A stretch of 59,794 nt of DNA, filler included. It is 5 parts of 5 records of this genome, joined end to end, with 100 filler letters (N's around TTAATTAATTAA, not from the genome) between each part and the next. Parts side by side here need not be neighbours in the genome. Positions count along the whole stretch, not along the records: positions 46,675 to 54,609 come from SRR31147125_5460; 4 more parts are not named here. One strand, given 5' to 3'. Positions 41,267 to 59,794 of the stretch are shown piece by piece. The translations under genes were made by a program, and so were the position numbers. The stretch's first letter is position 1. Every line of letters begins with the position of its first letter. Below the pieces are notes generated by a model. The model worked only from the letters and a program-made list of their open reading frames with translations. It was not told the origin of the DNA and did no database searches.

Positions 41267-41272
41267 GACAGT

Positions 41273-41302
41273 AAAAAGCCCGCGCCAATGGCGCGGGCTT
41301 TT
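41273..41302 (-). terminator. Intrinsic terminator after rplL
   Basis: AAAAAGCCCGCGCC-AAT-GGCGCGGGCTTTT. Confidence 0.8.
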
Positions 41303-41315
41303 GTGTTTGCGTTAC

Positions 41316-41699: not shown

Positions 41700-41777
41700 T
41701 TTTATAATCCTCCAAATAATAATCAATCAAATAATTTTATTATGCGGCGAAACGCGCCGCGTCGTGCGGGGGAGAGC

Positions 41778-42308: not shown

Positions 42309-42404
42309 TCGTATTTCACCTCCGGGCTTAAGATATATGGCCGCGGGCGTTTTAGCACCCACATGGCCAATTACTAATCCAACGCGATTAGTAAAATAGC
42401 GTCC

Positions 42405-42510
42405 AAATAAAAAATCCCCGAGCCAAAGGCACGGGGACATTAAGCAAACATAAACTGTCGGCTGTCCTCGGCAGGACTTACGGCTAACGCCACCTGCTGT
42501 CTTTGGAACG
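42405..42510 (-). ncRNA. L10 leader (ribosomal protein autoregulatory attenuator)
   Basis: Minus strand CCAAAGACAGCAGGTGGC...TAAGTCCTGCCGAGG followed by terminator TCCCCG...CGGGGATTTTTT, upstream of rplJ. Confidence 0.85.
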
Positions 42511-42517
42511 CCAAGAA

Positions 42518-42546
42518 ATAATATCAAATAAAAAGACTATTGTCAA
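42518..42546 (-). promoter_or_regulatory. Sigma-A promoter of rplJL
   Basis: TTGACA-17 bp-TATTAT just upstream of the L10 leader. Confidence 0.8.
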
Positions 42547-42620
42547 CCAGTAATATGAAAAATTAAAAGCTTAATAGAAAGAATATGAAGTGATGGCAAT
42601 GCCGTGCGGTAACGTGTTTT

Positions 42621-43721
42621 TCAAAAACCATTCCAGACAGGGACGCCGGTGTACATTTTGGCCTCTTCCTCGCCGCGCATGACGCGAAGCGCGCCGGCGC
42701 CCAGCGCTTCAAGCTCAAATTCGCCCGGCATGAGGACGACCTCGGCAATCCAGCTGATGTATTCCGTCATGATATCTGTAAAAGCTTTGCCGTTGCATAC
42801 GCCGCCCGTCAGGATGATGGCGTCGACCTGCCCTTTGAGCGCCACGGCCATCGCCCCGGCATATTTGGCGTTCTGATAAGCCAGCGCGCGGTAGGCAAGC
42901 GCAGCATATTCGTCACCGTCGTTGGCCATTTTCAGCACGTCACGCGTGTCGGCGGTGCCGAAATGGTCCATCAGGCCGCCGTTGACGTTAAGTCTGGCTG
43001 TCAGCTCTTTCTTAGTATACTCACCGCTGTACGCCAGATCGACGATTTTCATGTAGGCCATATCGCCGGCCCGGGTCGGCGTCATGGGGCCGGAGCCCTT
43101 GATGATGTCATTGGAGTCGATCATGCGGCCCTTTTGATGTGCCGTAATAGAGATGCCGCCACCGATGTGGCAGATGACGAGGTTGACCTCCTCGTATTTG
43201 AGGCCGCGCTCCTTGCAAAAACGCAGGGCAATTTCCTTTTGGTTGAGGGCGTGGACATGGCTTTCCCGATAGATGCCCTTAAGGCCCGAAATACGTGCGA
43301 TATCCTCGAACTCGTCCACGTCAGGCGGATTGACAATAAAGGCGCGCGCGCCGTATTGATCGGCAAACTGCCGGCAGATCTGAGATGCCAGTTGTGCCGG
43401 ATGCTGTCCGCTCATGCCCCTGGAGGCGTGCTCCACGAGCAGCGGCGTGACCTCGTAGGTGCCGCCCGTGACGGATAAAAGTCCGCCGCCGCGCCCGACA
43501 AACACGTCGACGCCGTCCAGCGTGTAACCCTTTTCCGTCATCGTCTGCGCGACGGTGTCGCGCCGGTAGGCGAGCTGATCCTGTATTTCTTTAAAATCCT
43601 TCAGCGCCTCGGGGGCGTGGCGAATCGTTTCGCTGAACACCTCGTCCTCATTATCGAACAGCGCTATTTTTGTGGAGGTTGAGCCGGGATTGATAGCCAG
43701 TATTCTATATTTCTTATCCAT
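42621..43721 (-). CDS. buk: Butyrate kinase family acyl kinase (copy 2)
   Basis: INPGSTSTK, GRGGGLL, HALNQK, CHIGGGIS and PGEFELEAL motifs. Confidence 0.9.
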   Translation of the reverse strand: MDKKYRILAINPGSTSTKIALFDNEDEVFSETIRHAPEALKDFKEIQDQLAYRRDTVAQTMTEKGYTLDGVDVFVGRGGGLLSVTGGTYEVTPLLVEHASRGMSGQHPAQLASQICRQFADQYGARAFIVNPPDVDEFEDIARISGLKGIYRESHVHALNQKEIALRFCKERGLKYEEVNLVICHIGGGISITAHQKGRMIDSNDIIKGSGPMTPTRAGDMAYMKIVDLAYSGEYTKKELTARLNVNGGLMDHFGTADTRDVLKMANDGDEYAALAYRALAYQNAKYAGAMAVALKGQVDAIILTGGVCNGKAFTDIMTEYISWIAEVVLMPGEFELEALGAGALRVMRGEEEAKMYTGVPVWNGF

Positions 43722-43730
43722 GCTGACTCC

Positions 43731-44645
43731 TTAAATGTGGTGACCGGCCGCGCAGGCGGCCAGCGCGATGGAATAGTACTTATCGCTTGCCTCAGCCGCG
43801 CGCGACGTCAGGATGACGGGAACCTTCGCGCCGAGCACATTGCCGGCCGTTATCGCGCCGCACAAGCCCGTGAGGCATTTGGCCAGAATGTTCCCGGAGA
43901 CAATATCGGGGACGAGAAGCAAATCCGCGTCGCCGGCCACAGGGCTTTCGTAGCCCTTGATGACAGCCGCTTCCGGTGATGTTGCCAGGTCAAAGGAGAT
44001 GGGACCCTCGACAATACAGCCGGTGATTTCGCCGTCCTGATTCATCTTTTTAAGCGCCTGGCCGTCAACAGTGTCGGGCATCTTGGGGTTGACCTTTTCA
44101 ACAGAGGATAAAACGGCGACCTTTGGGCGCTCAAAGCCAAGCGCATGGAAAAGCCCCACGGCGTTTTGCAAAATGGCTTTCTTGACCGCAAGGTCGGGGT
44201 ACGTGTTGAGCGCCATGTCGCTGACGGCAAAAAGCTTATGATACCGGGGCGTCTCATAAAAGCCGCAGACTGACAGCAGGCCGCCCTTCGTCATATTGTT
44301 GCGTTTGCTCACAATCGCTTTGATGAATTGGCCGGAATCAAGAATGCCCTTCATGACCGCTGTGGCAGTGCCGGCATTGACAAGCTCGACGGCTGTCTGG
44401 AGCGATTCGTCCGCGCCGCCCGACTCTACGATGTGAAAGGATGACGGGTCTGCCCCGTATTGTGATAAAATCGATGTTATTTTCTTAGTATGGCCAATCA
44501 GAACAGGGATCATGATATCCTCGCGCGCGGCCTTGACGACCGATTCGAGCGTGTGCTCATCGTGCGCCTCGACGACGGCGAGGACGGTCTTTCTTGTCAT
44601 GTTGCGCGCTTTGGCAGCCAGGTCGTCAAAACAGGTGATTTTCAA
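43731..44645 (-). CDS. ptb: Phosphate butyryl/acyltransferase (copy 2)
   Basis: VMKG, EKVNPKMP, VEGPISFDLA and GAKVPVILTSRA motifs; GGGAGG before the TTG start. Confidence 0.88.
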   Translation of the reverse strand: MKITCFDDLAAKARNMTRKTVLAVVEAHDEHTLESVVKAAREDIMIPVLIGHTKKITSILSQYGADPSSFHIVESGGADESLQTAVELVNAGTATAVMKGILDSGQFIKAIVSKRNNMTKGGLLSVCGFYETPRYHKLFAVSDMALNTYPDLAVKKAILQNAVGLFHALGFERPKVAVLSSVEKVNPKMPDTVDGQALKKMNQDGEITGCIVEGPISFDLATSPEAAVIKGYESPVAGDADLLLVPDIVSGNILAKCLTGLCGAITAGNVLGAKVPVILTSRAAEASDKYYSIALAACAAGHHI

Positions 44646-44955
44646 AGTTTTCCTCCCGGACGTGGATAATAAGGATGCGGAAAGCGGCGGTTATACCCGT
44701 CAGCGTCCGTCATCAGATGCTGTCAATCGTATCATTAATAAACGGACAATTCAACAGTTTTACGGTTGTTTCGGTCTGTATCCATTCGAATTGCGAATAG
44801 CGTCATTACCTGAAAAACATGACGTCTATGGCAGCGGGGGCCGTCTGCGGCTGTGCGGGATTTGTCCGTATTCGCGGTTCTGTCGGCGGTAAATGCAAAA
44901 TATGTTTAGACAAGGCGTAGCTATAAGGGAAGATGTCCGTTTATAAAACGGGGAA

Positions 44956-46425
44956 ATGGAGAAACGGACCGTGTTGTTTAAGCAGCTTAACGAGGCCGTC
45001 AACAGCTTTGTGTGGGGCATTCCGATGCTCACACTGATCATCGGTACCGGCTTATATCTGAGCGTGCGCACAGGGTTTATACAAATATTCAAATTTGGCT
45101 TTGCCATGAAGCACACCATTGGCAAGGCTTTAAAAAAGCAAAAAGCCGGCGCGGGGGCCGTCACGCCGTTTCAGGCAATGACGACGGCGCTGGCGGCGAC
45201 AGTCGGTACGGCCAACATTGTCGGGGTATCGTCGGCCGTAACGCTTGGCGGACCCGGCGCGCTGTTTTGGATGTGGGCCTCGGCGCTCATCGGTATGTGT
45301 ACCAAATATGCCGAGGTTGTGCTGGCCGTGCGGTTCCGCGAACGAAACAAGGCCGGGGAGTGGGCCGGCGGTCCGATGTACTACATAAAAAACGGACTCG
45401 GCAATAGGTATCGCTGGCTGGCCGATATCTTTTGTATTTTCGGAGCTATTACCGCGTTGGGCGTGGGAAATGCCATTCAGGTTGGCAATATGACCCAGTC
45501 TATCAATCAGACCATTGTTGCCTTTTCACCCGCTGCAGCCGGTAATGAGACCTCCATCAGCCTCGTAATCGGCATCATTGTCGCTGTATTGACAGCGCTG
45601 ACGCTATTCGGCGGCGTTAAGCGGATTGGCAGGGTTACGGAGATGATTGTGCCGTTTATGGCAGTGATCTATATCGTGGCGGCGCTGGCCGTCATCATCG
45701 TACATATAGACGCGGTTGGCGGCGTTTTTAGTCAGATATTCTCACAGGCCCTCTCGCCGAACGCGGCAGCCGGGGGCGCTGTAGGCATTTCGGTGCGCAC
45801 GGCTGTCAGCTGGGGCTTCCGTCGCGGCGTATTTTCAAATGAGGCCGGGCTTGGCTCCGCGCCAATTGCCCACGCGTCCTCCAGTGAAAAAAATCCCGTT
45901 ATTCAGGGGATGTACGGCATATTCGAGGTCTTTTTAGACACGATTATCATCTGCACAATAACAGGCCTGACGCTTCTCGTCAGCGGTATCGGGCTCAACT
46001 ACGGCTCGTTCGGGACGATTGAGCTGAACATCGCGGCGTTTGCCACTGTGTTCGGCGATAAAATCGCCGGGCTGATCCTATCCGTCGGAATGACGATGTT
46101 CGCGTTGGCAACTGTTTTTGGCTGGTCTCTTTACGGGATGCGCTGTGTGGAGTTTTTGTTTGGAAGCAGGAGCATACCCGTTTATAAGGTGCTCTATGTT
46201 ATTTTTGCCGTTATCGGCGCGACGGTTGAGCTGGAGGCCATCTGGCAGGTGGCTGATACGCTTAACGGCCTGATGGCGATTCCGAACCTCATTGCCGTGC
46301 TGGCACTGTCCGGCGTCGTCGTGAAGCTGACACAGGCGCAATTTTACCCGGACGAAAGGCTGCCGGACAGACCGGCCCGGACTAAAGCACCGCAGCGTTA
46401 TGGAAAATCCGCAAGCAGATATTGA
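44956..46425 (+). CDS. Alanine/glycine:cation symporter (AGCS family)
   Basis: LAATVGTANIVG, GGPGALFWMW, GGPMYYI, FSNEAGLGS and NGLMAIPNL motifs. Confidence 0.93.
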   Translation: MEKRTVLFKQLNEAVNSFVWGIPMLTLIIGTGLYLSVRTGFIQIFKFGFAMKHTIGKALKKQKAGAGAVTPFQAMTTALAATVGTANIVGVSSAVTLGGPGALFWMWASALIGMCTKYAEVVLAVRFRERNKAGEWAGGPMYYIKNGLGNRYRWLADIFCIFGAITALGVGNAIQVGNMTQSINQTIVAFSPAAAGNETSISLVIGIIVAVLTALTLFGGVKRIGRVTEMIVPFMAVIYIVAALAVIIVHIDAVGGVFSQIFSQALSPNAAAGGAVGISVRTAVSWGFRRGVFSNEAGLGSAPIAHASSSEKNPVIQGMYGIFEVFLDTIIICTITGLTLLVSGIGLNYGSFGTIELNIAAFATVFGDKIAGLILSVGMTMFALATVFGWSLYGMRCVEFLFGSRSIPVYKVLYVIFAVIGATVELEAIWQVADTLNGLMAIPNLIAVLALSGVVVKLTQAQFYPDERLPDRPARTKAPQRYGKSASRY

Positions 46426-46437
46426 TGAGGATAGCCT

Positions 46438-46476
46438 AAAAAAGAGCCCCAGCTCCCCCTCAGGGGAGCTGGGGCT
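46438..46476. terminator. Strong 14-bp hairpin after the symporter
   Basis: AGCCCCAGCTCCCC-CTCA-GGGGAGCTGGGGCT; A-tract on the 5' side, so a U-tract on the minus strand. Confidence 0.6.
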
Positions 46477-46574
46477 GCTGACTAAGCACTACGGGCCTTG
46501 CTGACAAAAAGATTACAGGACGGCTGCTTCGCCGTGCGCGGAAACTCTGCGAGGCTTTTTTAGAAATATATTTT

Positions 46575-46674: not shown

Positions 46675-46766
46675 TTGTGTCATTTTTTTATATTCATTTG
46701 CCATTTCTTCTAGCTGGTTTGCCTTCTCTTCTACCGAAGTTGGGAGAGTGCCGGTAAAATTGTGTC

Positions 46767-48041
46767 TTATTTCTCTTTGGTTCCAAATTTAGGATCGATT
46801 CTTAGAAAATTAACAATAATAAAACCGGGAATGGTACAGATCATGACCCAAACAAAGAAAAGTTTATAGCCAATTAACTCTTGCAGCCATCCGCTAATCA
46901 TTCCTGGTATCATCATTCCTAGTGCCATAAAACCTGTACAAAGAGCATAGTGTGCTGTTTGGTATTTACCTTGCGAAATATAAAGCATATACATAACATA
47001 GGCTGTAAATCCGAAACCATAACCAAATTGCTCAACAACAACAGATGCTGTTATAATACTAAGATTTTCGGGTTGAACAAAAGAAAGAAATACATACACC
47101 AAGTTTGGCAAATTCATGGCTAAAACCATTGGCCAAAGCCATTTCTTTATTCCTGATTTTGAAACTAGAATTCCTCCAATAATTCCACCGAGTGTTAACG
47201 CAATTACTCCCGCAGTGCCATAAATAAAACCAATATTACTGGTTGTTAATGAAAGCCCACCAACAGCAGCTTTGTCAAGCAAGAATGGAGATGCAAGTTT
47301 TACAAGTTGAGCTTCACCCAATCTAAAGATTAGAAGGAAAGCAATGCCAGTTAAGATTCCATCTTTTTTTATAAATGAGATTAATGTTTCCCAGAATTCC
47401 TTCATTAATTGATTTATACTTTTTGTTTCGCGTTTTTTATCTGCTTTTGGGTGAGGCAGAAAAATGAAATGCCAAATGAAGAAAGCTGAAAATAATGCAG
47501 CAAAAATGAAAAAAGTGATGCTCCATGCCCAAGAGGTTTTATCAGCGATTTTTTCCATATGACCAGCAAGGATTATAAGTGGGCCTTGTCCGGCAAGCAT
47601 GGCAAAACGATAAAATGTATTTCGAATTCCTACAAAAAAAGCCTGGTCATGTTTCGATAACCCAAGCATATAAAAACCATCAGCGGCGATATCGTGTGTG
47701 GCCGAGCTAAAAGCCATGAGCCATAAAAAAGCGAGACTATACTGAAAAAAACTACTTGTATTTAGAGTGAATGCAACGCCAGCTAAAGCAGCTCCAACAA
47801 TTAATTGCATGCAAATTATCCAAAATCGTTTGGTGCGCAGGTTATCTACAATTGGACTCCAAATAGGTTTGATTACCCATGGCAAATACAACCAGCTTGT
47901 GTATAAGGCAATGTCGGTATTTGAAATCTCCAACCGCTTGTACATGATTACTGAAACAGTCATTACAATTACATAAGGTAGCCCTTCTGCAAAATATAGG
48001 GATGGAATCCAGTTCCATGGATTGCGAGTTGCATTCTTCAT
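46767..48041 (-). CDS. ampG: AmpG-like MFS muropeptide transporter
   Basis: YFAEGLPY, LPWVIKPIWSPIVD and SATHDIAADG motifs; about 12 TM helices. Confidence 0.8.
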   Translation of the reverse strand: MKNATRNPWNWIPSLYFAEGLPYVIVMTVSVIMYKRLEISNTDIALYTSWLYLPWVIKPIWSPIVDNLRTKRFWIICMQLIVGAALAGVAFTLNTSSFFQYSLAFLWLMAFSSATHDIAADGFYMLGLSKHDQAFFVGIRNTFYRFAMLAGQGPLIILAGHMEKIADKTSWAWSITFFIFAALFSAFFIWHFIFLPHPKADKKRETKSINQLMKEFWETLISFIKKDGILTGIAFLLIFRLGEAQLVKLASPFLLDKAAVGGLSLTTSNIGFIYGTAGVIALTLGGIIGGILVSKSGIKKWLWPMVLAMNLPNLVYVFLSFVQPENLSIITASVVVEQFGYGFGFTAYVMYMLYISQGKYQTAHYALCTGFMALGMMIPGMISGWLQELIGYKLFFVWVMICTIPGFIIVNFLRIDPKFGTKEK

Positions 48042-48042
48042 T

Positions 48043-49380
48043 TTAGTAGATATTTTCTAATTCAGCACCGTTAAAGTAGTGTTTTAGAATGGCTTTGTAC
48101 GAGTAGCCTTTTTCTCCCATTACAGCAGCTCCAATCTGACAAAGGCCGACTCCATGCCCCCAGCCAGCACCACTTAAAACAAATTTTTGTGGAATTTCAT
48201 CAACTTTGTCTATATGATCTACAACAAATGCAGAACTGTATAAATGGGATTCAGAGAGAGCACGTCGTATTTCCAATTCCTTACCAATGGTTAGGATTTT
48301 TTTTGTTCCGGTAATTTTAAGTTTGATTATCCGAGATGAATGACCTCTTTCAACTGCCTCCAGTTTGATGATCTGACCAAAATCGATACCGATTTTTTTA
48401 AAGATTAAGCTTGATAGTTCCTCTTGTGAATAGCTGACTTTCCAGCGATAGAAATCAGATGTTGCCTGATCAAAATCAGGTAATACCTGTGAAAGAACTT
48501 GTTTATTGTTTGTATTACAAAATGCCGGAGGGGTGCTCTTAATCCATTCTTCTGCTTCATCTTCCTGGCGAAGGTCGACACAGGTGGTGGCAGCAAGTTC
48601 AGAATCGACTATTTTGGTGAGGTAGCTATACCGTGTAGGTTCCCATGTTTTCTCGAAGTTTTCGGAAATTCCACCACAACATTTTGAAAAACGGGTATCA
48701 CATATTTGATCATCAGACACCATTACCTGTCCCAAAGTTGAGTCAATAGCTTCCAGTGCTTTTGTATTAATAATTTTTGTGATTCCCTGGTAACGCTGAC
48801 AATGATCATCTGCACATACATCAAAGTGTTCATGATCTTCCCGGTCGTACCACCGGATTAACTCTTCTTCTATTTGTATGGTTGACTGATATCCGTCTGA
48901 CTTATTTGCTAATCGTTTATTTTTTTCAATTTGAGCCAATAACCAACTTCGTGATATTACAGCATGTGCCTTTAAAAGTTCGGGTGAGCTAGTAGCACTC
49001 ATTTCGGAAGATATTACCGAACGCAAATATTCTTCTAGATGAACAATGTTTATAGCCCTAATTTTATCATTTTCAATAATAAACTTCAACCCGCCCTTGA
49101 ATGATTGATTTTCTTTTTGTTCCCAGTGAAAGTCAATTCCAATGGTTACATCTTTCAATAAAAATGAAGAATCACTTTCATTGCTTGTGAATAAAAGTTC
49201 ACGCTTCTGAGATATCTGTTTATCGTTTAAAAACAGACAAATAGAGTCCTTCTTTAATTTGACTCTATATTTCAGGTGGGATGATAGCCTCTTTTCTTCT
49301 AGAAAGTATGTTCCTGAAAACTCAAAATCGATTTCATTATCGATCATTATGCCGACAAGTATTTCAGGCTCCTGTTTCAT
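48043..49380 (-). CDS. SpoIID/LytB domain lytic transglycosylase
   Basis: LEEYLRSVISSEM...LKAHAVISRS, DVCADDHCQRYQG and GWGHGVGLCQIGA...ILKHYF. Confidence 0.88.
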   Translation of the reverse strand: MKQEPEILVGIMIDNEIDFEFSGTYFLEEKRLSSHLKYRVKLKKDSICLFLNDKQISQKRELLFTSNESDSSFLLKDVTIGIDFHWEQKENQSFKGGLKFIIENDKIRAINIVHLEEYLRSVISSEMSATSSPELLKAHAVISRSWLLAQIEKNKRLANKSDGYQSTIQIEEELIRWYDREDHEHFDVCADDHCQRYQGITKIINTKALEAIDSTLGQVMVSDDQICDTRFSKCCGGISENFEKTWEPTRYSYLTKIVDSELAATTCVDLRQEDEAEEWIKSTPPAFCNTNNKQVLSQVLPDFDQATSDFYRWKVSYSQEELSSLIFKKIGIDFGQIIKLEAVERGHSSRIIKLKITGTKKILTIGKELEIRRALSESHLYSSAFVVDHIDKVDEIPQKFVLSGAGWGHGVGLCQIGAAVMGEKGYSYKAILKHYFNGAELENIY

Positions 49381-50368
49381 AAATTTCTTTTAAATCTGAT
49401 TTCAGCTTCTCAAAAGCTTTGTCATTTAAGGTTACTTGATTGTATATGCTAATGAGATCACTGTTTGAAATTTCTTGAAAATCTTTTTCACGAGGAAGAA
49501 TTCCAAGCCCCCCCATTTCAGCAGCTGCAGGGCTAATTAAAATTTGATCATCTCCTTCTTCGTAATACTGAGTTGGGCGTAGCTTCTCTCGCGGAAAAAT
49601 GATAACCTTCCACCCATTTTTGTAATAACATAGAATATTCATCATTGGCTCGGTTTCATTTTCAGGGAGTATGCGATGAATAAATTTGAACTGCTTTTGA
49701 AGTTCTTCCTGATTATCAGACTCCAGTATGAAAAATTTTCGTAGGTAAGGTTCTCCAACTGCTGAAAGTTTTAACTCGTCACTTTGAAAAAGTATTTCAC
49801 CATGCTTTTCAGCAATTTGTGTTGCTTCAGTGTTTATAGGCATAAGCCCTTTCAACCCTGCCTGAAAGTGAAAATGATCGGGTGCAGATGCTCCACATTT
49901 TGGACCGTTATAAAATATGGTGAACTCTTCAAGTGCTTTGCTAAGAGTTAACATATCTCCAAATTTGCCTTCAATTTTCTGTGAGGAATGTTCATTTAAA
50001 GTAATGGTGAGGTGAATAGGGAAAATAGGATATGGATTAATCAAGATCGAATATTTTCCTTTGTAATCAATCCCTTTTTGTTGAACAGGTAAGTTTTTGT
50101 CACACAAGAAACAAGCTCGCTTTTTAATTGATTCATGATCAACTTTTGCTGCAGAAGAGCGAATTCGTTCCGGATTGTATTGAACACGAATTTTAAAATC
50201 ACTGAAATGGAGTAAGCGAACGTTTACCTTCTCTAGACCTTTGTAGTTTGACTTTACCAAATTCCAGTTCTCCTTCTGGTGAAGAAAAAGCGCTTTTGCC
50301 AAATCAGACAAGCTAGTGGTTGGACCAAACGGTTTTAGTTCTTCTATTTCAATAATATGATCGTGCAT
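49364..50368 (-). CDS. DUF4922-like HIT/GalT-superfamily nucleotidylyltransferase or phosphorylase
   Basis: QYNPERIRSS, CFLC, NPYPI, YNGPKCGASAPDHFHFQAG (HxHxQ) and SPAAAEMGG motifs. Confidence 0.75.
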   Translation of the reverse strand: MHDHIIEIEELKPFGPTTSLSDLAKALFLHQKENWNLVKSNYKGLEKVNVRLLHFSDFKIRVQYNPERIRSSAAKVDHESIKKRACFLCDKNLPVQQKGIDYKGKYSILINPYPIFPIHLTITLNEHSSQKIEGKFGDMLTLSKALEEFTIFYNGPKCGASAPDHFHFQAGLKGLMPINTEATQIAEKHGEILFQSDELKLSAVGEPYLRKFFILESDNQEELQKQFKFIHRILPENETEPMMNILCYYKNGWKVIIFPREKLRPTQYYEEGDDQILISPAAAEMGGLGILPREKDFQEISNSDLISIYNQVTLNDKAFEKLKSDLKEIYETGA

Positions 50369-51816
50369 TATGCTTGATTCTTTTGAATTCTAGCTTTTAA
50401 CTCAAATGTACGTAAACGATCTTTGTATACATTGTGCGCATTCATTTTATTAATATCTAAAGATGCATCTGAGTTATCCTCCCATCTTCGGCAACGGTAA
50501 ATTGCATCATATATGCGTCCAATTTTATATTCTCTTGAAATTGCTATCCCTAGTGCATAATCTTCACCATAACTGGTGTTTGGCACACGGAGTTCTTTTA
50601 TAATGGGTTTAAAAAAGGCTCGCGGTGCTCCTAGTCCGTTTATGCGCAGGGCATTATTTGGACCATTCTCGGGAGTCCACTCTTTGTGGTCTATTAATCC
50701 GGGAGGAATTTCTTCCAGATTAAAATTGCACATTTGATAGGAGCCAATAACCATGGCACATTTGTCGATATAAAATTGGTCAACTATTTTCTGAATTGTA
50801 TTTTCATCGAAGTATAAATCATCGCTATCCAGTTGAATGGCAAAACGGCCACATTGTTTATGATCAATTGCTTCATTCCAACAACCGCCAATCCCCAAAT
50901 CTTTACGTTTCGGATTTACTACAATTAACCGCTCATCATCATAAGAATCCAGAATTTCTGAAGTGCCATCAGTTGAATAATTATCAATTACAATCAAGTT
51001 GAAATTAAAGGACGTTTTTTGAGTTAAAACTGAATTAACTGCAACTTGAATTGTTTTTGCCCGATCACGAACAGGAATAATAACACTGGCTTCAACAGGA
51101 AAGTCACCAGAAAAATCGACTTCTTTAAAATCGGGTTTCAAAAAAGCACCAACTTTTTTAAGGTGAAGGGTACAGGCTTCTTCCATTTCAATTTGCTTTT
51201 CCCTTGCATTTACATTCACATAGTCAAATTGCTTTTCTCCTGTTTTGCGGGTATCCATTTCAATCATGCTAAATAGAGGTTCCGGAATACGAAGTATTTC
51301 ACCTTCACGCGATGCCTTTAAACGAAGAGCATAATAGCCAGCAGACTTCCAACTCCGGTTTATCTCCGTTTCAATATTTTCAAATACTTGTTTTTTGTAT
51401 AACTGCACAGGTCCAAAATTGAAATCGTCTCGTAAACTTCCAACTTGATAATCAATTACTGGATGATTGGATTGAGTTCCATTTTTTATTTCGTGATAAT
51501 CGCAGTAAATCATACATGCGTTACTGGAAATAGCCAATTGAGCCATTCTTTCAATTGAATACTGTCCGGTCTGTATCGGTGTGTATTGGAGTGAAGTAAG
51601 TGCAAAGTCAGCATCAAGCCTTTCAGCAATAGCAAGAATATTTTGGCTCGAATTTGGGTTTTTGGATACAATTATTTCAGCATTTTTAAACTCAATATTC
51701 TCAGGGGCAATAACAAAAATATTTTTCACCGAACCTGATAGGCAAACTTGGTCAATCGTTTTTTGGGTTTCTTCAAAACCACTATATGCTATAAAACAAT
51801 CAATACATTTAGTCAT
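50368..51816 (-). CDS. Glycosyltransferase family 2
   Basis: [24 protein letters not shown] and GED motifs; N-terminal second GT-A-like region. Confidence 0.88.
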
Positions 51817-51820
51817 TACT

Positions 51821-53323
51821 CTATAACTTAATTATTACTGATTTTGTTGGTTCACTTTCGTTATGAAGTCTGTCAAGTGCAGTTACTCTAACTTCATAAG
51901 CTTTTTTCTTTCCTTTTCCCCGCTTTAATTTAATTTTTTGCTTGGAAGTAATTTCTTCAATAAATTCTGAATTATTTGCATCGAAATTTTGACCGATACG
52001 AGTTTTGTATACAACATAGCGTACCGCACGGTTCATATAGCCAGTAGCCATTGGCTCTTCCCATTTAATTGAACGTGATCCACTTTTCTTAAACTTGATG
52101 GGTGTATCCGGACTTTGCCCATCTATCCATGGCATTTCAGGAACGATAGCCGGGGTGTTGTAAAGTTTTAGTTGAAGGCTGTCATTAAAGCCATCTAAAT
52201 GTTTGTAAAAGTGTTTAACACTAAAAAATGCACTTCCTGCAAAGTTGTCAAGTTCACGAGAGAACCTGATTTGATCGGTTAATTGTTTCGAACTTCGCCA
52301 TTCCTCAAGATTCGATTCAGGATCAAATTTATATGTTGCATGCCCGATGTAAAAGGCTTTTCCATAAGCATTATCATTCCACCAATTTGCAAGCATTTTA
52401 TAATCCACAGCGGGATGCCCGAATCTCCAGTATAGCTGGGGGAGTACATAGTCAATCCATCCTTCTTTCTGCCATTTCAAAATATCAGCATAAAGTTGAT
52501 CATAGTTTGTTGTGCCAGCTTGCGAATCAGAGCCTCTTGGGTCGTCTTTTTTATTACGCCAAACACCAAACGGACTAATTCCGAATTTCACCCATGGCTT
52601 GGTTGATTTAATTACCTTATCCAGTTGCTGAATAATGATGTCTACATTTTCTCTGCGCCAATCATCTATTTCTGCATTTGAAAAACCTCGGTTAAACTGG
52701 CGGAAAGAAGTGGTGTCAGGGAACGGTTGATTTGCAATTGGATACGGATAAAAGTAATCATCAAAATGAATGGCATCTACATCGTATCGTGAAACTACAT
52801 CATGAACAACTTTCCCTATAAACTCACGGGTTTGGGGTAAGCCAGGATCAAAGTATAGTTTTGTTCCATATTGGATAACCCAATTCGGATGTTCAAACGC
52901 TATGTGGTTAGCTGCCAGTGGCTCGTCAAATTTTTGCGCCAAGCGGAATGGATTAAACCAGGCATGAAACTCCATATTTCGATTATGACACTCTTCAATC
53001 CAAAATTTCATGGGATCATATCCGGGAGATTTCCCTGGTGTACCTGTGAGGTATCGCGACCATGGCTCAAGCTTTGAGTGATAAAAAGCATCGCTGGCCG
53101 GGCGAATCTGAAAAATGACAGCATTCAATCCATTTTTCTGCATTAAATTTAATATGTTAATGGCTTCAGCTTTTTGTTCAGCTTGATTTAAACCAGGACT
53201 GGAAGGCCAGTCTATGTTTGACACTGTGGCAACCCAGGCAGCACGAAACTCGCGTTTTGGGTTTTTTTGAGCTTTCAAACTGATTGGTATGTAGAATATT
53301 AATAGTAATATAAAGAGTCGCAT
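51821..53323 (-). CDS. Secreted glycoside hydrolase-like family 10 protein (GHL10/DUF187, YddW/DigH-like) with an FN3-like tail
   Basis: Signal peptide; [33 protein letters not shown] and PQLYW motifs. Confidence 0.88.
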
Positions 53324-53510
53324 GAATTATATTTTAATGAAAATTCTGTTTGAATATCTGGTATCTATTTGAAAGAACAAAATACCAAGTAGTAAATCAA
53401 AAAACAAGGAGGTGTTTTAAAGATCTGATGAAGATTTCAACAAGTCATTGTTCATCAAATAGTACATTGGTAAAATTAAAAGGAATGATATTGGCGCTTG
53501 AAAATAGTCC

Positions 53511-53518
53511 TATATTTG
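53511..53518 (+). promoter_or_regulatory. Bacteroidetes -7 promoter element immediately before the kinase ATG
   Basis: TATATTTG matches TAnnTTTG; ATG follows 4 nt later. Confidence 0.5.
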
Positions 53519-53522
53519 TGAG

Positions 53523-54365
53523 ATGATATTAATTGCAGACAGTGGATCTACAAAGACTTCATGGCGAATAATTAGCTCGAGTGGGGAAGTCAAATCGATT
53601 GAGACTTCTGGTATCAATCCTTTTTTTAGATCCAGCGATGATATAGAGCGTGAGCTACGAAAAGAATTGCTTCCATTTGCATTAAATATTCAGAAGATTT
53701 TCTTTTATGGAGCCGGAATTGTCAATGATGAAAAGGCATCAATTGTTATCCATGCTCTAAGGCAATTGTTTGGTGAAATTCCTGTTCATGCATATAGCGA
53801 TGTTGTTGGTGCAGCACGTTCCGTGTGTCGTAATAAACCAGGTATTGCTTGTGTTTTAGGAACAGGATCAAGTGCTTGTTTGTATGATGGAGTCAATATT
53901 ATTGATGCCATACCCCCAATGGGTTTTATACTCGGAGATGAAGGAAGCGGTGTAGCAATGGGAAAGAATCTTATTGGAGATTATTTTAAGAAGATAATGC
54001 CTGAAAAACTAAGGCATAAATTTCAACAACAATATAAAATTTCTAAGGTTGATGTACTTGAAAAGGTGTATAAAAGAGAGAAGCCAAACCAGTACCTCGC
54101 CAGTTTTACATTATTCATTTCTGAAAATATAGATGAAAAATATTGTAGCGAGCTTGTACGTCAAAATTTAAGATCGTTTATTACTCGAAATATTAAAAAT
54201 ATTGAAGGTTTTTTTGAAATGCCAGTTCACTTTGTTGGCTCTGTTGCATTTGTCTTTCAAAATTTATTGATAGAAGTAATAGAAGATGAAGGACTTATGT
54301 TTGGACAAGTCGTGAAAGACCCAGTAGATGGACTTGTTGCATACCACCAAAATCAAGAATTATAA
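53523..54365 (+). CDS. BadF/BadG/BcrA/BcrD-type ASKHA kinase (GlcNAc/MurNAc kinase-like)
   Basis: IADSGSTKT, GINP, FYGAG, LGTGS, GFILGDEGSG and FVGSVA motifs. Confidence 0.85.
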   Translation: MILIADSGSTKTSWRIISSSGEVKSIETSGINPFFRSSDDIERELRKELLPFALNIQKIFFYGAGIVNDEKASIVIHALRQLFGEIPVHAYSDVVGAARSVCRNKPGIACVLGTGSSACLYDGVNIIDAIPPMGFILGDEGSGVAMGKNLIGDYFKKIMPEKLRHKFQQQYKISKVDVLEKVYKREKPNQYLASFTLFISENIDEKYCSELVRQNLRSFITRNIKNIEGFFEMPVHFVGSVAFVFQNLLIEVIEDEGLMFGQVVKDPVDGLVAYHQNQEL

Positions 54366-54455
54366 ACAGCCACTAATAAATGTTTATTTCTGTTTGTTTG
54401 TGTAAGGTGCTTTAAATTAATAGACTGAAGCATTCAAAATAAATCTGCAAAGCGA

Positions 54456-54488
54456 ATTGTGTAACTCCTGATTTTTTTAATATCTTTG
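54456..54488 (+). promoter_or_regulatory. Bacteroidetes sigma-A promoter driving the candidate sRNA
   Basis: ATTG (-33)-21 bp-TATCTTTG (-7). Confidence 0.6.
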
Positions 54489-54493
54489 ACCCG

Positions 54494-54609
54494 AAATCGA
54501 GTATACGGTTTTCCGTGTACGATAACGATGGCATGACGGAAATTCCCTTTTAAGGGATACTACATTTCCGGAATGCTCATGGTTTATTAGGTTTAGTTGG
54601 TTTAGGTTA
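54494..54609 (+). ncRNA. 5' part of a candidate structured sRNA with GGTTTAG repeats
   Basis: Hairpin GTATACGG/CCGTGTAC; nested stem GCAT-CGGAAAT-TCCCTT/AAGGGA-ATTTCCG-ATGC; then GGTTTATTAGGTTTAGTTGGTTTAGGTTA; no long ORF. Confidence 0.5.
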
Positions 54610-54709: not shown

Positions 54710-55627
54710 GCAGAACCGCCGCTTATTCTGGTCGGGCTGGGAGCCAAGGAACCCTTTCATGCATCCCCTGAAGTATACCTCAAAGGTCAGGAACAGCTGA
54801 TGGCCTACGGCCTGAAGGTGCTTGACCGGCTTGCGCCCGGCAAGGTTCGGGTCTTTGCAGATGAGGCCGAAAAAGGACTCAGCCAAAAAGCAGACCAGTG
54901 GCTGACGCACACCATTGCCGGCAACTACCCCAGCGACGATCCGGGAACGGTGCTTTACTATCTTAAGACGGAAGCGTCGCAAAACCGGGCCTGGTATGTG
55001 GCCGGCCAGGATCTGTTGCTGCTGGCCCATCTGCTGCGCGAAGGGCGTTATCCCACCCAGCGGGTGGTGGCCGTGGGAGGCAGCGCGGCCCCCGAGCGCC
55101 GACACTACCTGACCCGAATGGGCGAACCACTGGCTGGGTTGTTCGATTCCGACCGCCTAAACGGAGACGAGCGTTTTGTGGTTGGTGGCCTGTTCCGGGG
55201 CTACGCGAGCAGTAAAGACAGCTTCATGGGGCTCTATGAAACGGCACTGAACGTGGTGCCCGAAGGTGGCGAAGCGGAGTTTCTGGCCCTGTTCAACCCC
55301 GGCATCTCCCGGCATAGCTATTCGCGCACCTTTCTCTCCAAGCTCAATCCCAAAAACCTGGTGTACAACTGTAACATCCATGGAGACGAAAGGGCCTGCA
55401 TCGCCTGCATGCACTGCGCAGACGTCTGCCCGGTGGATCTGCTGCCGCAACTGATTTATAAAGCCATCCTCGTCGATGAGGTCGAAGAGTACCTTGAACA
55501 CGGATTGCTCGATTGCGTAGAGTGTGGGTTGTGCTCTTACGTCTGTCCGTCAAAAATAGAGCTCAGCCGGACGCTTGTAGCGGCAAAGGGGAGTTATGCC
55601 AAAGAGCGGACCGAAAAGAGCGAATAG
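54710..55627 (+). CDS. nqrA: Na+-NQR subunit A, 5' truncated, with an intact 2x[4Fe-4S] domain
   Basis: Frame open from the contig start; first gene of nqrBCDEF; CIACMHCADVCP and CVECGLCSYVCP motifs. Confidence 0.82.
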   Translation, partial: AEPPLILVGLGAKEPFHASPEVYLKGQEQLMAYGLKVLDRLAPGKVRVFADEAEKGLSQKADQWLTHTIAGNYPSDDPGTVLYYLKTEASQNRAWYVAGQDLLLLAHLLREGRYPTQRVVAVGGSAAPERRHYLTRMGEPLAGLFDSDRLNGDERFVVGGLFRGYASSKDSFMGLYETALNVVPEGGEAEFLALFNPGISRHSYSRTFLSKLNPKNLVYNCNIHGDERACIACMHCADVCPVDLLPQLIYKAILVDEVEEYLEHGLLDCVECGLCSYVCPSKIELSRTLVAAKGSYAKERTEKSE

Positions 55628-55697
55628 CAATCCAGGCGGAGTGGAAACAACGATAGCTCATATTGCAGCCTCCTCTAACTGATGGTGTCCAACAAAG

Positions 55698-56882
55698 ATG
55701 AATATCCTTCGCAAGTTTATTGAAAACCAGCGCAAGCATTTTCAAGGGGAAGGCACTTTGGCGCGCCTGGAACCTTTTTACGAAGCCATGGAGCGGGTCT
55801 TTTTCGGCACCGGCGAGGTGACCCGACAAGCGCCGCATGCACGCGACAGCCTCACGGTGCAGCGCTATATGATGCTGGTCATAGTGATGCTGCTGCCGTG
55901 CCTTTTTTTCGGTATGTACAATGTGGGGCTACAGTCGTTCAAGGCCGCTGGGCAGCCCCTTGATTTCTGGCCCATGCTCCTGTTCGGTGCTAAAGTGGTT
56001 CTGCCGCTGGTCATCATCTCGTACCTGTTCGGATTCGGATGGGAAATCGTCTTTTCCACCATTCGACGTCATCCGATCAGCGAGGGCGTGTTTGTAACGG
56101 CCATGCTATTCCCGCTCACCCTGCCCCCCACAACCCCCTGGTGGCAGGCTGCATTGGGAATCTCTTTCGGTGTCATCATCGGCAAGGAGGTGTTCGGCGG
56201 CACCGGCCGCAACTTTCTCAATCCTGCATTGACAGGCCGGGCTTTTCTCTACTTCGCCTATCCGGTTCAAATGTCGGGTGACGCAGTATGGACCGCCCTA
56301 TTCAATAGCGGTAACCAAGCGGTGGATGCGGTGTCAGCCGCCACACCGCTGGCGGTGGCCGCCACTGCACCGGCTTCTCAATCGGTCACGCAAACCCTCA
56401 ATTCATCCGGCTATGATTTCAGCACCCTCTTTCTCGGCCTCTACCCGGACAGCATCGGTGCCTCCTCGGCCCTTTTGTGCCTGATCGGCGCCGCGGTTCT
56501 GATCTTTATCGGCGTGGCCAGCTACCGTATTATTATCGGAGATATTCTGGGTGTGCTGGCCGTAGGCTATGCGCTCAACTTGATGGCAGGCGACGCATCG
56601 GCACCCTACTGGAGCATGAATCCGCTCTATCACCTGTTGATCGGTGGCACGGCCTTCGGGATCGCCTATATGAGCACCGATCCGGTATCGGCACCCGACA
56701 CCCATGCCGCCAGATGGATCTACGGTTTCCTCATCGGCGCATTGACGGTGCTGATCCGGGTCTTCAATCCCGCTTTTCCGGAAGGGATCATGCTGGCCAT
56801 TTTGTTCATGAATGTATTTGCCCCCTTACTGGACCACATGGTGATCCGGTTGAGGATTCGCAGAAGGATACCCAACACGTAG
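55698..56882 (+). CDS. nqrB: Na+-NQR subunit B
   Basis: HARDS, KEVFGGTGRNFLNPAL, SAATPL FMN threonine, TDPVS and PEGIMLAIL motifs. Confidence 0.93.
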   Translation: MNILRKFIENQRKHFQGEGTLARLEPFYEAMERVFFGTGEVTRQAPHARDSLTVQRYMMLVIVMLLPCLFFGMYNVGLQSFKAAGQPLDFWPMLLFGAKVVLPLVIISYLFGFGWEIVFSTIRRHPISEGVFVTAMLFPLTLPPTTPWWQAALGISFGVIIGKEVFGGTGRNFLNPALTGRAFLYFAYPVQMSGDAVWTALFNSGNQAVDAVSAATPLAVAATAPASQSVTQTLNSSGYDFSTLFLGLYPDSIGASSALLCLIGAAVLIFIGVASYRIIIGDILGVLAVGYALNLMAGDASAPYWSMNPLYHLLIGGTAFGIAYMSTDPVSAPDTHAARWIYGFLIGALTVLIRVFNPAFPEGIMLAILFMNVFAPLLDHMVIRLRIRRRIPNT

Positions 56883-56923
56883 TCAGAAGCAGTGCCGTCT
56901 CCACGGCGGTCAGGAACAGACAG

Positions 56924-57637
56924 ATGCCCAATGCATTAAAATCACTTATTTTCGCAACAATACTGTGCGTGGTTTGCAGCCTGTTGCTCACGGCGGCCAG
57001 CACCGGCCTGCAATCGTATCAGCAGAAAAATGCCGAAGTGGATCGACAAAAAAATATTCTGCTCGCTTTCGGCATTATCTCCGATGGCCAGGCGGTGGGT
57101 TCCGACGAGATCCAAAAGCTTTACCAGAGCAAAGTCAAAAGCCTGGTGATTGACGAGAGTGGACGCATCGTACCGGAAAATGAACGCACCCCTCAAGATC
57201 TTCCCCTTTATACCTACGTTGAGAACGATACGCTGCAAGCCTATGTGGTTCCCATCGACTCAAGGGGGTTGTGGGGCAAAATCCACGGCTATATGGCCAT
57301 TGAGAACGACGGCGCTACCATAAGGGGCTTTACCGTCTACAAACACCAGGAAACCCCGGGCCTGGGCGGTGAAATCGAAAGTCGCTGGTTCCGTAAGAAT
57401 TTCAAGGGCAAAAAAATCGTCGACACAAACGGCGATTTCGTATCCGTCAAGATTGCCAAGGGTAGCGCAGAAGGGGCTGTGGCCGCAAAACGGCGGATTA
57501 ACTACGTAGACGGCATTAGTGGTGCCACGATGACCGGTAAATTCTTGTCCGAAGGGATGAAACAGGTTCTCAAGGAGTACGAGCCGGTTGCCGTGCAGTT
57601 CCGGCAGAAAAACAAACGCTACCTGAGGACTCAGTAG
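56924..57637 (+). CDS. nqrC: Na+-NQR subunit C
   Basis: GLWGKIHGY, HQETPGLGGEI and DGISGATMT FMN site; ATG 56924 preferred over the long ORF-track extension. Confidence 0.92.
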   Translation: MPNALKSLIFATILCVVCSLLLTAASTGLQSYQQKNAEVDRQKNILLAFGIISDGQAVGSDEIQKLYQSKVKSLVIDESGRIVPENERTPQDLPLYTYVENDTLQAYVVPIDSRGLWGKIHGYMAIENDGATIRGFTVYKHQETPGLGGEIESRWFRKNFKGKKIVDTNGDFVSVKIAKGSAEGAVAAKRRINYVDGISGATMTGKFLSEGMKQVLKEYEPVAVQFRQKNKRYLRTQ

Positions 57638-57689
57638 CTTTGAAATAACTTAAAAAGATTAACGGATCAATCCGAACGACGGTCAAACC

Positions 57690-58313
57690 ATGTCAAAGTT
57701 AACAAAAAGCCAAACATACAAAGCGATCTCCGAAGCGTTATGGCAATCCAACCCCATCTCAAAACAGATTCTGGGGATCTGTTCAGCCCTGGCTGTCACG
57801 GTGCAGCTGAAAACCGCCGTGGTCATGGGGCTGGCGCTCACCTTTGTGGTGGCCTTCTCCAACTTGTTCATCTCGCTGCTCAGACGCCGGATACCGAGGA
57901 ATATACGCATCATCGTCGAGGTGGCGGTGATTGCTACACTGGTCATCATCGCCGATGAGTTTTTGCGGGCCTTCATGTACGACATCAGCAAGCAGCTCTC
58001 GGTCTTCGTGGGTCTCATTATCACCAACTGCATTGTCATGGGGCGCGCTGAGACCTTTGCCATGGGTAATCCTCCCGGACGCAGCTTCGTGGACGGTGCC
58101 GCCAACGGCATCGGCTACGCCTCGATCCTGTGCGGCGTCGCTTTCTTCCGCGAGTTGCTGGGATCGGGAAAACTCTTCGGTTTTCAGGTGATCCCCGACA
58201 GCTTCTATGCGGCCGGATATCACAACATGGGCCTGATGCTTCTGGCACCCGGCGCATTTATCACCATCGGCCTGTTCGTCTGGCTGGAGCACACGCTGTT
58301 GAAGGACAAGTAA
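57690..58313 (+). CDS. nqrD: Na+-NQR subunit D
   Basis: [36 protein letters not shown] and RELLGSG motifs. Confidence 0.95.
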
Positions 58314-58921
58314 TGGAAAACATGGTCAGCCTTTTCGTCAATTCAGTCTTTGTGGGCAATATCTTATTGGCCTATTTCCTCGGGATGTGCTCTTACCTGT
58401 CGGTCTCCAAAAACCTGCGGACCAGCTTAGGTCTTGGGCTGGCCGTCACCTTCGTCATGACCATCACCACACCGGCCAACTGGCTGCTCTATCACTATCT
58501 ACTGGCACCGGGCGCACTCTCCTGGGCCGGCTTGCCGAATGTGGATCTGGGTTTTTTGAAACTGGTGCTCTTCATCGCCACCATTGCCGGGATCGTTCAG
58601 GTGGTCGAGATGGTGATCGACCGATATTCCCAGGGGCTCTACAACGCATTGGGTGTCTTCCTGCCATTGATCACGGTCAACTGCGCCATACTGGGCGCAT
58701 CCCTCTTTATGGTCGAACGGCGCTACACCTTTGCCGAAACCATGGTCTACGGACTGGGATCGGGGCTCGGCTGGATGCTGGCCATCGTGGCCATGGCAAC
58801 GATCATGCAAAAGATCCGCTATGCGGATGTTCCCGAAGGTCTGCAGGGGTTCGGCATCCGCATGATCGTAACCGGATTGATGGCAATGGCCTTCATGCTC
58901 TTTTCGGGCATCACCTTGTAG
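58313..58921 (+). CDS. nqrE: Na+-NQR subunit E
   Basis: [28 protein letters not shown] and [12 protein letters not shown] motifs; ATG overlaps the nqrD stop. Confidence 0.95.
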
Positions 58922-58956
58922 ATCCCTTTGATCCAAAGAAGGAGGCAACTTCCGAC

Positions 58957-59794
58957 ATGCCTGCAATATATCTGATAAGCCTGGCGGTTTTCCTGGGCGT
59001 GGTCCTGACACTCGTGGGAATCCTCCTGCTGGTGGAATCCCAGTTGACGGTCAAAGGCGATCAGCGCATCGTTATCAACGGAGACGAAAGCAAGAGCGTC
59101 GCCACCCCAGGTGGTAAAACATTGCTCAGCGCCTTGATCGAGAACCAGATCTATCTGCCCAGTGCCTGCGGCGGCAAAGGCACCTGCGGTACGTGCAAAT
59201 GCAAGGTGATTGACGGCGGCGGCGACATTCTGCCTACCGAGCTGTCACTGGTCAGCCGCAAAGAACGCGCCGAGCAGATTCGACTGGCATGCCAGGTCAA
59301 GGTCAAGCAGGAGATGGCGATCCGCATACCCGATGAGATCTTCAATATCCAAAAGTACACTGCTACCGTGGTCTCCAATGACAATGTCGCCACCTTTATA
59401 AAAGAGCTTGCCATCAAACTCGACGACGGCCAAACCATCGACTTCAAAGCCGGCGCCTACATGCAGATCGACATCCCGGAATACGAAGCCGACTTCAAAA
59501 ATTTCAGTGTAGCCGAGCAGTACAAGGCGGCCTGGAAACAGTTCAACCTTTTGACCCTTAAATCCAAATCGGACACGCCGGCAAATCGGGCCTACTCCCT
59601 GGCCAACCCGCCCATCGAGACCGACCTGCTGAAGTTCACCATCCGCATCGCCACGCCGCCGCCAGGCGTTGAAGCGGCCCCTCCAGGCGTGGGCAGCTCC
59701 TACGTGTTCAACCTCAAACCCGGCGATCGGGTGACGATCAGCGGTCCCTATGGAGATTTTTTCGCCAAAAAGACCGAGCGGGAGATGTGCTTTT
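58957..59794 (+). CDS. nqrF: Na+-NQR subunit F, 3' truncated (absent from the ORF track)
   Basis: GGAGG RBS; N-terminal TM helix, SACGGKGTCGTC 2Fe-2S motif, RLACQVKV, RAYSLAN FAD motif, RIATPP and SGPYGDF. Confidence 0.93.
   Translation, partial: MPAIYLISLAVFLGVVLTLVGILLLVESQLTVKGDQRIVINGDESKSVATPGGKTLLSALIENQIYLPSACGGKGTCGTCKCKVIDGGGDILPTELSLVSRKERAEQIRLACQVKVKQEMAIRIPDEIFNIQKYTATVVSNDNVATFIKELAIKLDDGQTIDFKAGAYMQIDIPEYEADFKNFSVAEQYKAAWKQFNLLTLKSKSDTPANRAYSLANPPIETDLLKFTIRIATPPPGVEAAPPGVGSSYVFNLKPGDRVTISGPYGDFFAKKTEREMCF

Follow-up and report, generated by a model that had tools for sequence, protein, structure and literature searches.

The window analysed here, a stretch of 59,794 nucleotides (nt), is made up of five contigs (positions 1-25221, 25322-35504, 35605-46574, 46675-54609 and 54710-59794) separated by N/TTAATTAATTAA spacers, and the question that it raises concerns the 3' end of the fourth of these (54481-54609, + strand), where a promoter box, TATCTTTG, is followed by two stem domains and by a G/U-rich tract whose letters, GGTTTATTAGGTTTAGTTGGTTTAGGTTA, extend up to the very end of the contig at 54609. 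What is this element, and why does the assembly break inside it? An initial annotation had proposed it as a novel Bacteroidales small RNA (sRNA) with telomere-like repeats that could be reconstructed across two contig ends. As set out below, the element belongs to a family whose members form a conserved, structured, non-coding promoter-to-terminator unit with an invariant repeat tract and a fixed synteny. The reading that we favour, and regard as modestly probable, is that an independently transcribed sRNA gene of ~172 nt is split over contigs 4 and 2, that it belongs to an uncatalogued modular family with a 3' module related to the Bacteroides sRNAs FopS and GibS, and that it acts by base-pairing in trans.

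The promoter, hairpin, nested stem and tract that had been described at the end of contig 4 were all found in place. The Bacteroidota-type promoter box TATCTTTG (consensus TAnnTTTG; 54481-54488, + strand, as are the other contig 4 elements) lies 97 nt ahead of the 24-mer with which the contig ends, and is followed by a 5' leader, ACCCGAAATCG (54489-54499), that is near-invariant in the subtype to which the window belongs (type A) and is predicted to pair with UGGUUUAGGUU of the tract (helix 1 of the type-A alignment, A1). This leader is a possible anti-seed for the tract, although the helix is a prediction only (RNAalifold on A1), with 8 of its 10 pairs lacking any variation. Next come hairpin P1, GTATACGG-TTTT-CCGTGTAC (54501-54520), whose homologous helix in A1 has 3 pairs changed on both sides, and the composite stem domain P2 (54530-54577), which consists of an outer GGC/GCT helix, a middle helix ACGGAAATT/ATTTCCGG and an inner hairpin (A1 helices 3-5), with compensatory changes in 6 of the 6 pairs of helix 5 and in 3 of the 9 pairs of helix 4. 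The G/U-rich tract CATGGTTTATTAGGTTTAGTTGGTTTAGGTTA (54578-54609), a candidate seed or protein-binding tract of about three 9-nt GGTTTAnnn repeats, then reaches the contig end. The term 'telomere-like', applied earlier to these repeats, is a description and nothing beyond that.

Among all pairs of the ten contig ends in the window, the sole overlap is that between the 3' ends of contigs 2 and 4, and it is exactly 24 nt long: positions 35481-35504 on the minus strand copy the last 24 nt of the tract, being the exact reverse complement of 54586-54609. The initial annotation was also correct in what it placed beyond this overlap on the minus strand of contig 2, namely a small GC hairpin, CCCCGAGAGATCGGGG (35462-35477), which is an optional module of the family, and a Rho-independent terminator, GAAAAGGCAGTCAGAGGACTGCCTTTTT with a T tail (35424-35459), whose hairpin (35459-35432) has 12 pairs, 5 of them G-C, and which supplies the predicted 3' end of the RNA. 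When the coordinates of the two halves are joined in a script, a predicted non-coding RNA of 172 nt results. A covariance model of the tract and terminator (model R1) matched only these two contig ends in the window, with 75.7 bits (E 1.8e-15) at 35430-35518 on the minus strand and 44.1 bits at the contig 4 tract. The reconstruction is further supported by the 56 nt of contig 2 past the overlap, which agree with four type-A loci at 54 of 56 positions, with a fifth at 50 and with a sixth at 48, and with every non-A subtype at 31 of 56 at most; in addition, the terminator variant GGC(A/G)GTC occurs in all 7 type-A loci and in none of the 83 others. Because the contig 2 and contig 4 halves are of the same subtype, a joined gene is the natural reading, and contigs 4 and 2 would accordingly carry the two halves of one gene, with the caveat that other members of the family co-occur in the same samples.

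The exact 24-mer was found in 105 metagenome contigs, which reduce to 95 distinct sequences over the interval from -110 to +55, and some 65 assembly prefixes were counted by eye among the 80 contigs listed of the 105. The loci have a common plan, in which a TAnnTTTG box is followed by a 5' domain, by (C/U)(A/G/U)UGGUUU and the 24-mer, by an optional GC hairpin and by the terminator AAAAGGCUGUCAGAGGACAGCCUUUU. The 5' domains sort into mutually unalignable groups, with 43, 29, 8 (type A, that of the window), 4, 3, 2 and 2 members and 5 singletons. The invariance of the 24-mer is a product of ascertainment, as the members were collected by exact match to it; the TGGTTT ahead of it and most positions of the terminator, which lie outside the query, are nevertheless each invariant or at least 90% conserved. 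The terminator is near-invariant across the family and shows a compensated T/A swap in type A, and the GC hairpin is present in most subtypes with differing stems (CCCG/CGGG, CCGG/CCGG, CCTG/CAGG), being missing from 9 of the 36 rows of alignment A4. The tract of an intact homologue has a repeat period of 9 nt with 2.8 copies (TRF). In 83 of 88 loci, compared with 52 of 626 control windows, a TAnnTTTG box precedes the 24-mer by 55-240 nt, at distances that are specific to each subtype (99-117 nt in type A, with the 97 nt of the window just under this range). For 80 members the predicted RNAs are 121-205 nt long, with a median of 185, and the longest complete ATG-initiated open reading frame (ORF) has a median of 4 amino acids and a maximum of 42, in agreement with the earlier claim of a promoter-to-terminator unit devoid of coding potential; a small ORF was rejected as an explanation.

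Several blocks outside the tract are conserved within single subtypes. Short-type loci (L003, L025, L043 and others) have a conserved single-stranded block, (G/A)AUAUUUAAGA(C/A)AAAUCA, ~20-40 nt upstream of the tract, together with a conserved GUUCU loop in the hairpin adjoining that block, and in the long type the conserved block is another one, AAAAUAUAAUACAC; such blocks may be additional seeds or anti-seed partners. Terminator stems near-identical to that of the family (AAAAGGCUGUC...GACAGCCUUUU, or a GGCUGCC/GGCAGCC variant) also follow unrelated genes in 28 of the 151 Bacteroidota genomes sampled, which suggests that a preferred terminator sequence exists in Bacteroidota.

The stems of the 5' domain covary. 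Alignment A1, which comprises the 5' half from the window and seven intact type-A loci, folds with RNAalifold into 57 pairs with 95.6% of cells paired, and 14 of its pairs are changed on both sides, compared with 3.9 +/- 1.5 in shuffled alignments (0 of 500 shuffles reach 14) and 2-4 in slid controls. The covariation is concentrated in the 5' hairpin and, within the second domain, in its two inner helices, and the GC hairpin (helix 6) contributes 2 compensatory pairs. The short subtype has an 8-bp hairpin abutting the tract, with 91.2% paired cells and 27 compensatory cells versus 7.6 +/- 3.0 in shuffles, a value again reached in 0 of 500, so that covarying stems are borne out in two separate subtypes. 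An intact type-A member (L084) has a predicted folding energy of -59.6 kcal/mol (z = -5.17) and a tract that is unpaired in the centroid fold, and the joined halves of the window reach -67.5 kcal/mol (z = -6.5 versus mononucleotide shuffles). Together with the 105 exact occurrences of the 24-mer and the 9-nt repeat period, these values put the pattern well outside what chance would produce.

The position of the RNA gene at the edge of a cluster for the recycling of muropeptides and N-acetylmuramic acid (GHL10, MurK-like, MurQ) is likewise conserved. Neighbours were counted over 64 distinct loci in which the upstream flank is 700 nt or longer and over 60 loci with a downstream flank. Upstream, GHL10 and/or MurQ/MurK-like genes are found in 59 of the 64 loci, in overlapping sets of 40 with a divergent GHL10 gene, 20 with a same-strand MurQ gene and 20 with a MurK-like gene, and 3 of the 5 exceptions have a GT2 gene instead. 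MurQ, the product of which is GlcNAc-6-phosphate (GlcNAc, N-acetylglucosamine), reaches the equivalog cut-off of TIGR00274 (302.8 versus 302). In the window itself, the GHL10 gene (PF02638; 51821-53323, minus strand) is divergent from the RNA, represents the family's most constant neighbour and encodes a protein 59-71% identical to the GHL10 proteins of other carriers. Between it and the RNA lies a gene for a BadF/BadG-type ATPase of 280 amino acids (53523-54365, + strand; PF01869 with E 5.5e-5, below the cut-off, and no match in NCBIfam), which ends 115 nt ahead of the promoter box and is read as MurK-like by its position. In all, contig 4 (46767-54365) encodes an AmpG-family MFS transporter (an assignment that is the best NCBIfam match but lies below the cut-off), a SpoIID/LytB-domain protein, a DUF4922 protein, a GT2 glycosyltransferase, GHL10 and the BadF-type ATPase. 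This is a cluster of the muropeptide/N-acetylmuramic acid recycling type, without a MurQ gene on contig 4 itself although MurQ is present in the loci of relatives, and its gene set presumably resembles the muropeptide/N-acetylmuramic acid salvage cluster of Tannerella. Downstream genes vary: a TcdA-like gene follows in 13 of the 60 loci, and 47 lack all five reference neighbours that were searched for. If the halves are joined, an adenosine deaminase gene (34273-35289, minus strand; PF00962, E 2.4e-91) would lie ~135 nt past the terminator on the same strand, and it is not a conserved neighbour (0 of 60 loci).

The break in the assembly had been attributed to a motif that is 'multicopy or conserved', and of these two explanations the second is upheld by coverage, which was taken from the Logan contigs of four DNA runs from three studies over 52600-54609. 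In the best-matching run the body of contig 4 has a depth of 4.74, and in the last bin (54543-54609) the summed depth rises to 105, 62, 139 and 60 in the four runs (10-30 times the contig body), carried at the tract by Logan contigs of 34-44 nt with depths of 47.5-128. Loose ends of the Logan contigs at the tract read like other subtypes of the family, with TTCTGGTAAGTTTG ahead of 54580 corresponding to the short-type hairpin, and with a different GC hairpin and AAAAAGGCTGT behind 54608. The tract is a high-coverage node common to several co-occurring genomes, and the assembly breaks there because of this. Across the family, 36 loci have a contig end no more than 1500 nt from the 24-mer; in 12 of these the end is 250 nt away or less, where ~6 would be expected if ends were spread evenly. 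A second high-depth node of the same contig, at 52740-52790 inside the GHL10 gene, has ~45 nt covered by contigs of other organisms in all four runs (summed depth 5.8-60 versus 4.7 for the contig body), and corresponds to a conserved coding stretch common to co-occurring genomes. The contig of the best-matching run also differs from the window by an additional T after 54547, within the inner-hairpin loop, and by a small number of substitutions within the MurK-like and GHL10 genes; these differences indicate strain-level variants.

The multicopy explanation, by contrast, is not supported within genomes. Each of the 80 contigs listed has one exact copy of the 24-mer, and these include 14 that range from 52 kb to 1.13 Mb and add up (by hand) to ~2.9 Mb. 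No second copy was found in the window with model R1 or in 106 loci (228 kb) scanned with a hidden Markov model; variant-seed paralogues may occur elsewhere in the carrier genomes.

The carriers seem to be poorly represented among the species genomes searched. With model R1, 151 genomes gave only matches of 26-34 bits, mostly look-alikes of the terminator and none with the tract. Among protein neighbours, the contig 4 GHL10 finds no match above 54% identity among 201 Bacteroidota genomes sampled, the contig 4 GT2 gene has no orthologue in 5 candidate genomes, and a scan of genome contigs for the MurK-like protein gave a single locus, at 41% identity. Viral contigs gave 0 exact matches to the 24-mer. 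The initial assignment to Bacteroidales is narrower than the evidence: the promoter type, the type IX secretion system (T9SS) sorting domain that adjoins some family members and the atlas taxa indicate the phylum only. On the favoured reading the source is an uncultured marine Bacteroidota bacterium. The GC fractions of contigs 1-5 (0.35, 0.38, 0.53, 0.37 and 0.55) fall into two classes, 0.35-0.38 and 0.53-0.55, which implies a mixture of at least two organisms in the window, and contig 1 need not share its organism with contigs 2 and 4. That contig carries (759-24249) a cluster for anaerobic cobalamin and tetrapyrrole synthesis, with CbiD, a CobQ-like protein, HemA, HemL and a CysG/HemD fusion as well as a URO-D-family protein and a RACo-type corrinoid activator.

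The claim of novelty holds only in part. No Rfam 15 family matched the element at its gathering score: the sole match in the window is the ribosomal protein L10 leader (RF00557, 67.4 bits; 42399-42524, minus strand), which lies on the high-GC contig 3, and the sole match in 20 intact loci is an unrelated tRNA. The exact tract was not found, in either orientation, in the literature searched, and a literature search on a conserved Bacteroidota small RNA or murQ returned nothing relevant. 'Novel' has to be qualified, however, because the tract and terminator module is a sub-threshold look-alike of FopS (RF04319), the only family that recurred as a weak match at permissive thresholds, with 15.8-29.4 bits against a gathering score of 56. 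On the contig 2 half, FopS scores 15.8 bits (model positions 16-71) and is second of 7 weak matches; on locus L004 it is listed first with 17.4 bits, in a near tie with asX1 (17.3 bits, with a slightly lower E-value); and in 6 of 6 short-type loci it is the top match, with 25.4-29.4 bits. The alignments for L004 and the short-type loci are global, covering model positions 1-71 and spanning tract and terminator. As all scores are below 56, this makes the module a look-alike and not a member. A search with the FopS model found nothing in 151 genomes of one order or in 2 further genomes, with only the Bacteroides thetaiotaomicron control matching.

The resemblance to FopS extends to the canonical TAnnTTTG promoter and the non-coding nature of the RNA (as described in the available portions of PMC11697453), to a G/U-rich tract in which (C)AUGGU, AUUAG, UUUA and AGGUUA appear in the same order, and to a terminator, GGCUGNC...GNCAGCC, directly behind the tract, such that the ~66-nt tract and terminator module aligns to the whole 71-nt model. 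In the same portions of that source FopS is described as a family of paralogous Bacteroides sRNAs with 12-15 dispersed copies per genome, which contrasts with the one syntenic locus per contig found here. Further differences are the structured, lineage-specific 5' domain of 70-140 nt in the present family, compared with a FopS seed that is reported to lie at the 5' end of a ~65-71-nt transcript; one extra 9-nt repeat in the present tract; and the carriers, which are uncultured environmental Bacteroidota rather than Bacteroidaceae. FopS is further marked by RbpB binding and by repression of susC-type translation-initiation regions. GibS of B. thetaiotaomicron (in the sections of PMC7366714 available) is, like the present RNA, an intergenic sRNA present in a single copy and similar in length (~145 nt), with internal hairpins and a terminator; it has the R1 seed in common with FopS, and its induction by GlcNAc parallels the location of the present RNA next to MurQ, so that both have a link to N-acetyl amino sugars. 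GibS is described as differing in having its seed (R1 and R2) in an unstructured 5' end, whereas the conserved tract is here 3'-proximal; in having a non-canonical PM2 promoter instead of a canonical TAnnTTTG box; and in its neighbourhood, which is the glycogen operon. Apart from FopS, no family in Rfam recurred here as a weak match. SrcF of Segatella, a 272-nt, genus-restricted RNA, was considered and set aside, its description, as far as available, stating no link to the present family.

Two further comparisons concern layout and motif. The processed enterobacterial sRNAs ArcZ and RprA combine a conserved 3' part, with seed and terminator, and a variable 5' part; the likeness is one of layout only, in an unrelated phylum and with no Hfq here, and by analogy the active species of the present RNA could be a 3' fragment. 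The sponge RNAs of the Csr/Rsm type, CsrB and RsmZ, repeat a short motif in an exposed stretch, whereas here there are about three repeats and the motif is GGUUUA rather than GGA; Bacteroides itself is described as lacking CsrA (PMC13370968, from the part available).

The general features of trans-acting sRNAs, an own promoter and terminator, absence of coding potential and conservation across species, are all matched by the sequences of the family. On the favoured reading of a base-pairing sRNA, the 3' module (tract plus terminator, ~66 nt) would be a distant relative of the 'R1-seed' sRNAs FopS and GibS, both of which are reported to pair with translation-initiation regions and to bind RbpB (PMC11697453 and PMC7366714, in their available sections). 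By analogy with these, the tract would serve as an extended seed, base-pairing in trans with mRNAs at their A/C-rich translation-initiation regions so that ribosome loading is blocked, and an RRM-type protein would be a possible modulator of the RNA. The variable 5' domain, the partial masking of the tract in predicted folds and the FopS-sized 3' module together suggest either gating, in which the 5' domain would mask the tract, or processing, which would remove the 5' domain and free a FopS-sized 3' fragment; production of such a fragment from the predicted 121-205-nt RNA is possible. The MurQ neighbourhood and the induction of GibS by GlcNAc hint, by the same analogy, at a role in amino-sugar or cell-wall turnover.

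A number of results weigh against this reading. The FopS scores are far below the gathering score, with E-values of 0.1-4, and homology is not established; moreover, the tract does not lie at the 5' end of the RNA, unlike the FopS and GibS seeds, and the invariance of its 24-mer stems from the way the family was collected. Nor is the tract clearly single-stranded, its mean unpaired probability across 80 members being 0.37-0.44 in most subtypes and 0.60-0.63 in type A. No RNA data set was found among the four runs (three studies) that match contig 4, and the transcription start site, the 3' end and the processing are predictions. An ungapped scan of 43 kb of low-GC window contigs gave no complementary target above the shuffled-seed background, and neither did the flanks of the 95 loci, which represent a tiny part of any carrier genome. 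Finally, the 23-nt tract, with up to 2 mismatches allowed, was found in 0 of 401 genomes of a sample of the phylum, 0 of 401 of one order and 0 of 281 of another (1016 distinct Bacteroidota genomes), although one order had been picked through the HemL of contig 1 (best identity 58%), a weak choice as that contig may come from another organism.

The explanation that survives best beside a base-pairing sRNA, although we consider it unlikely, is a protein sponge or decoy, in which the three GGUUUA(G)/UAGG repeats would titrate an RRM-1 protein of the RbpB type and so set its free level. Such a role would suit the tandem 9-nt repeat in 2.8 copies, the absolute conservation of ~30 nt, which is longer than typical seeds, and the failure of the scans of window contigs and locus flanks to find a target. 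Known sponge RNAs, however, carry many more repeats than the approximately three found here, and the neighbourhood survey linked no partner gene to the locus. In FopS and GibS, RbpB is reported to contact single-stranded stretches of the corresponding region, which favours the sponge, yet its affinity for FopS is given as micromolar only, and FopS combines protein binding with base-pairing, such that the two modes of action need not be alternatives (PMC11697453, available portions).

More doubtful still is an evolutionary extension of the favoured reading, in which the family would represent the ancestral state of the FopS/GibS 'R1-seed' regulators, present in a single copy and tied to the recycling of peptidoglycan and N-acetyl amino sugars in environmental Bacteroidota as a counterpart of GlmY/GlmZ, with a masked tract that is freed by processing and with a 3' module that gut Bacteroides amplified into FopS. 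If this were true, the invariance of ~30 nt would imply an equally invariant partner, either a common mRNA leader or a conserved RNA-binding protein.

Very improbable, in our view, is a cis-acting element, that is, a 3' untranslated region or attenuator of a murK-murQ operon, or the leader of a downstream gene. The conserved tract does abut the terminator directly, and 22 of the 64 loci lie 140-320 nt downstream of a MurQ and/or MurK-like gene on the same strand. Against this, a divergent GHL10 gene is the only upstream cluster gene in 37 of the 64 loci and stands together with MurQ/MurK-like genes in 3 more, no alternative antiterminator pairing was seen, 83 of 88 loci have a TAnnTTTG box of their own, and the downstream genes vary, being often on the opposite strand and in 47 of 60 loci including none of the five reference neighbours. 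A riboswitch or leader was rejected as a reading. A DNA-level feature or artefact (an adapter, an assembly chimera, the end or attachment site of a mobile element, or a protein-binding DNA repeat), which would fit the ending of both contigs in the tract and the excess of contig ends near the 24-mer (12 versus ~6 expected), is largely refuted and scarcely credible, given a tract that is internal in contigs of up to 1.13 Mb and present under ~65 assembly prefixes, always in a constant context of promoter, stem and terminator, RNA-type compensatory changes, stable synteny, no viral-contig matches and no transposase or integrase neighbours. The adapter, named initially as a possible refutation, was rejected as a reading.

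Functionally studied Bacteroidota sRNAs come from few gut species, according to a 2026 review (PMC13750123, as far as available), and to these the present work adds a family of sRNAs found in metagenomes of marine, freshwater and reactor-type origin, which has the unusual traits of an exceptionally conserved ~30-nt tract, clear structural covariation and a fixed place beside cell-wall recycling genes. In practical terms, metagenome assemblers repeatedly break at the tract, and the covariance model could be used to annotate the family. If the link to FopS is true, the FopS/GibS system would gain an evolutionary origin outside the gut, and with it a hypothesis that ties sRNA control to the turnover of amino sugars and peptidoglycan.

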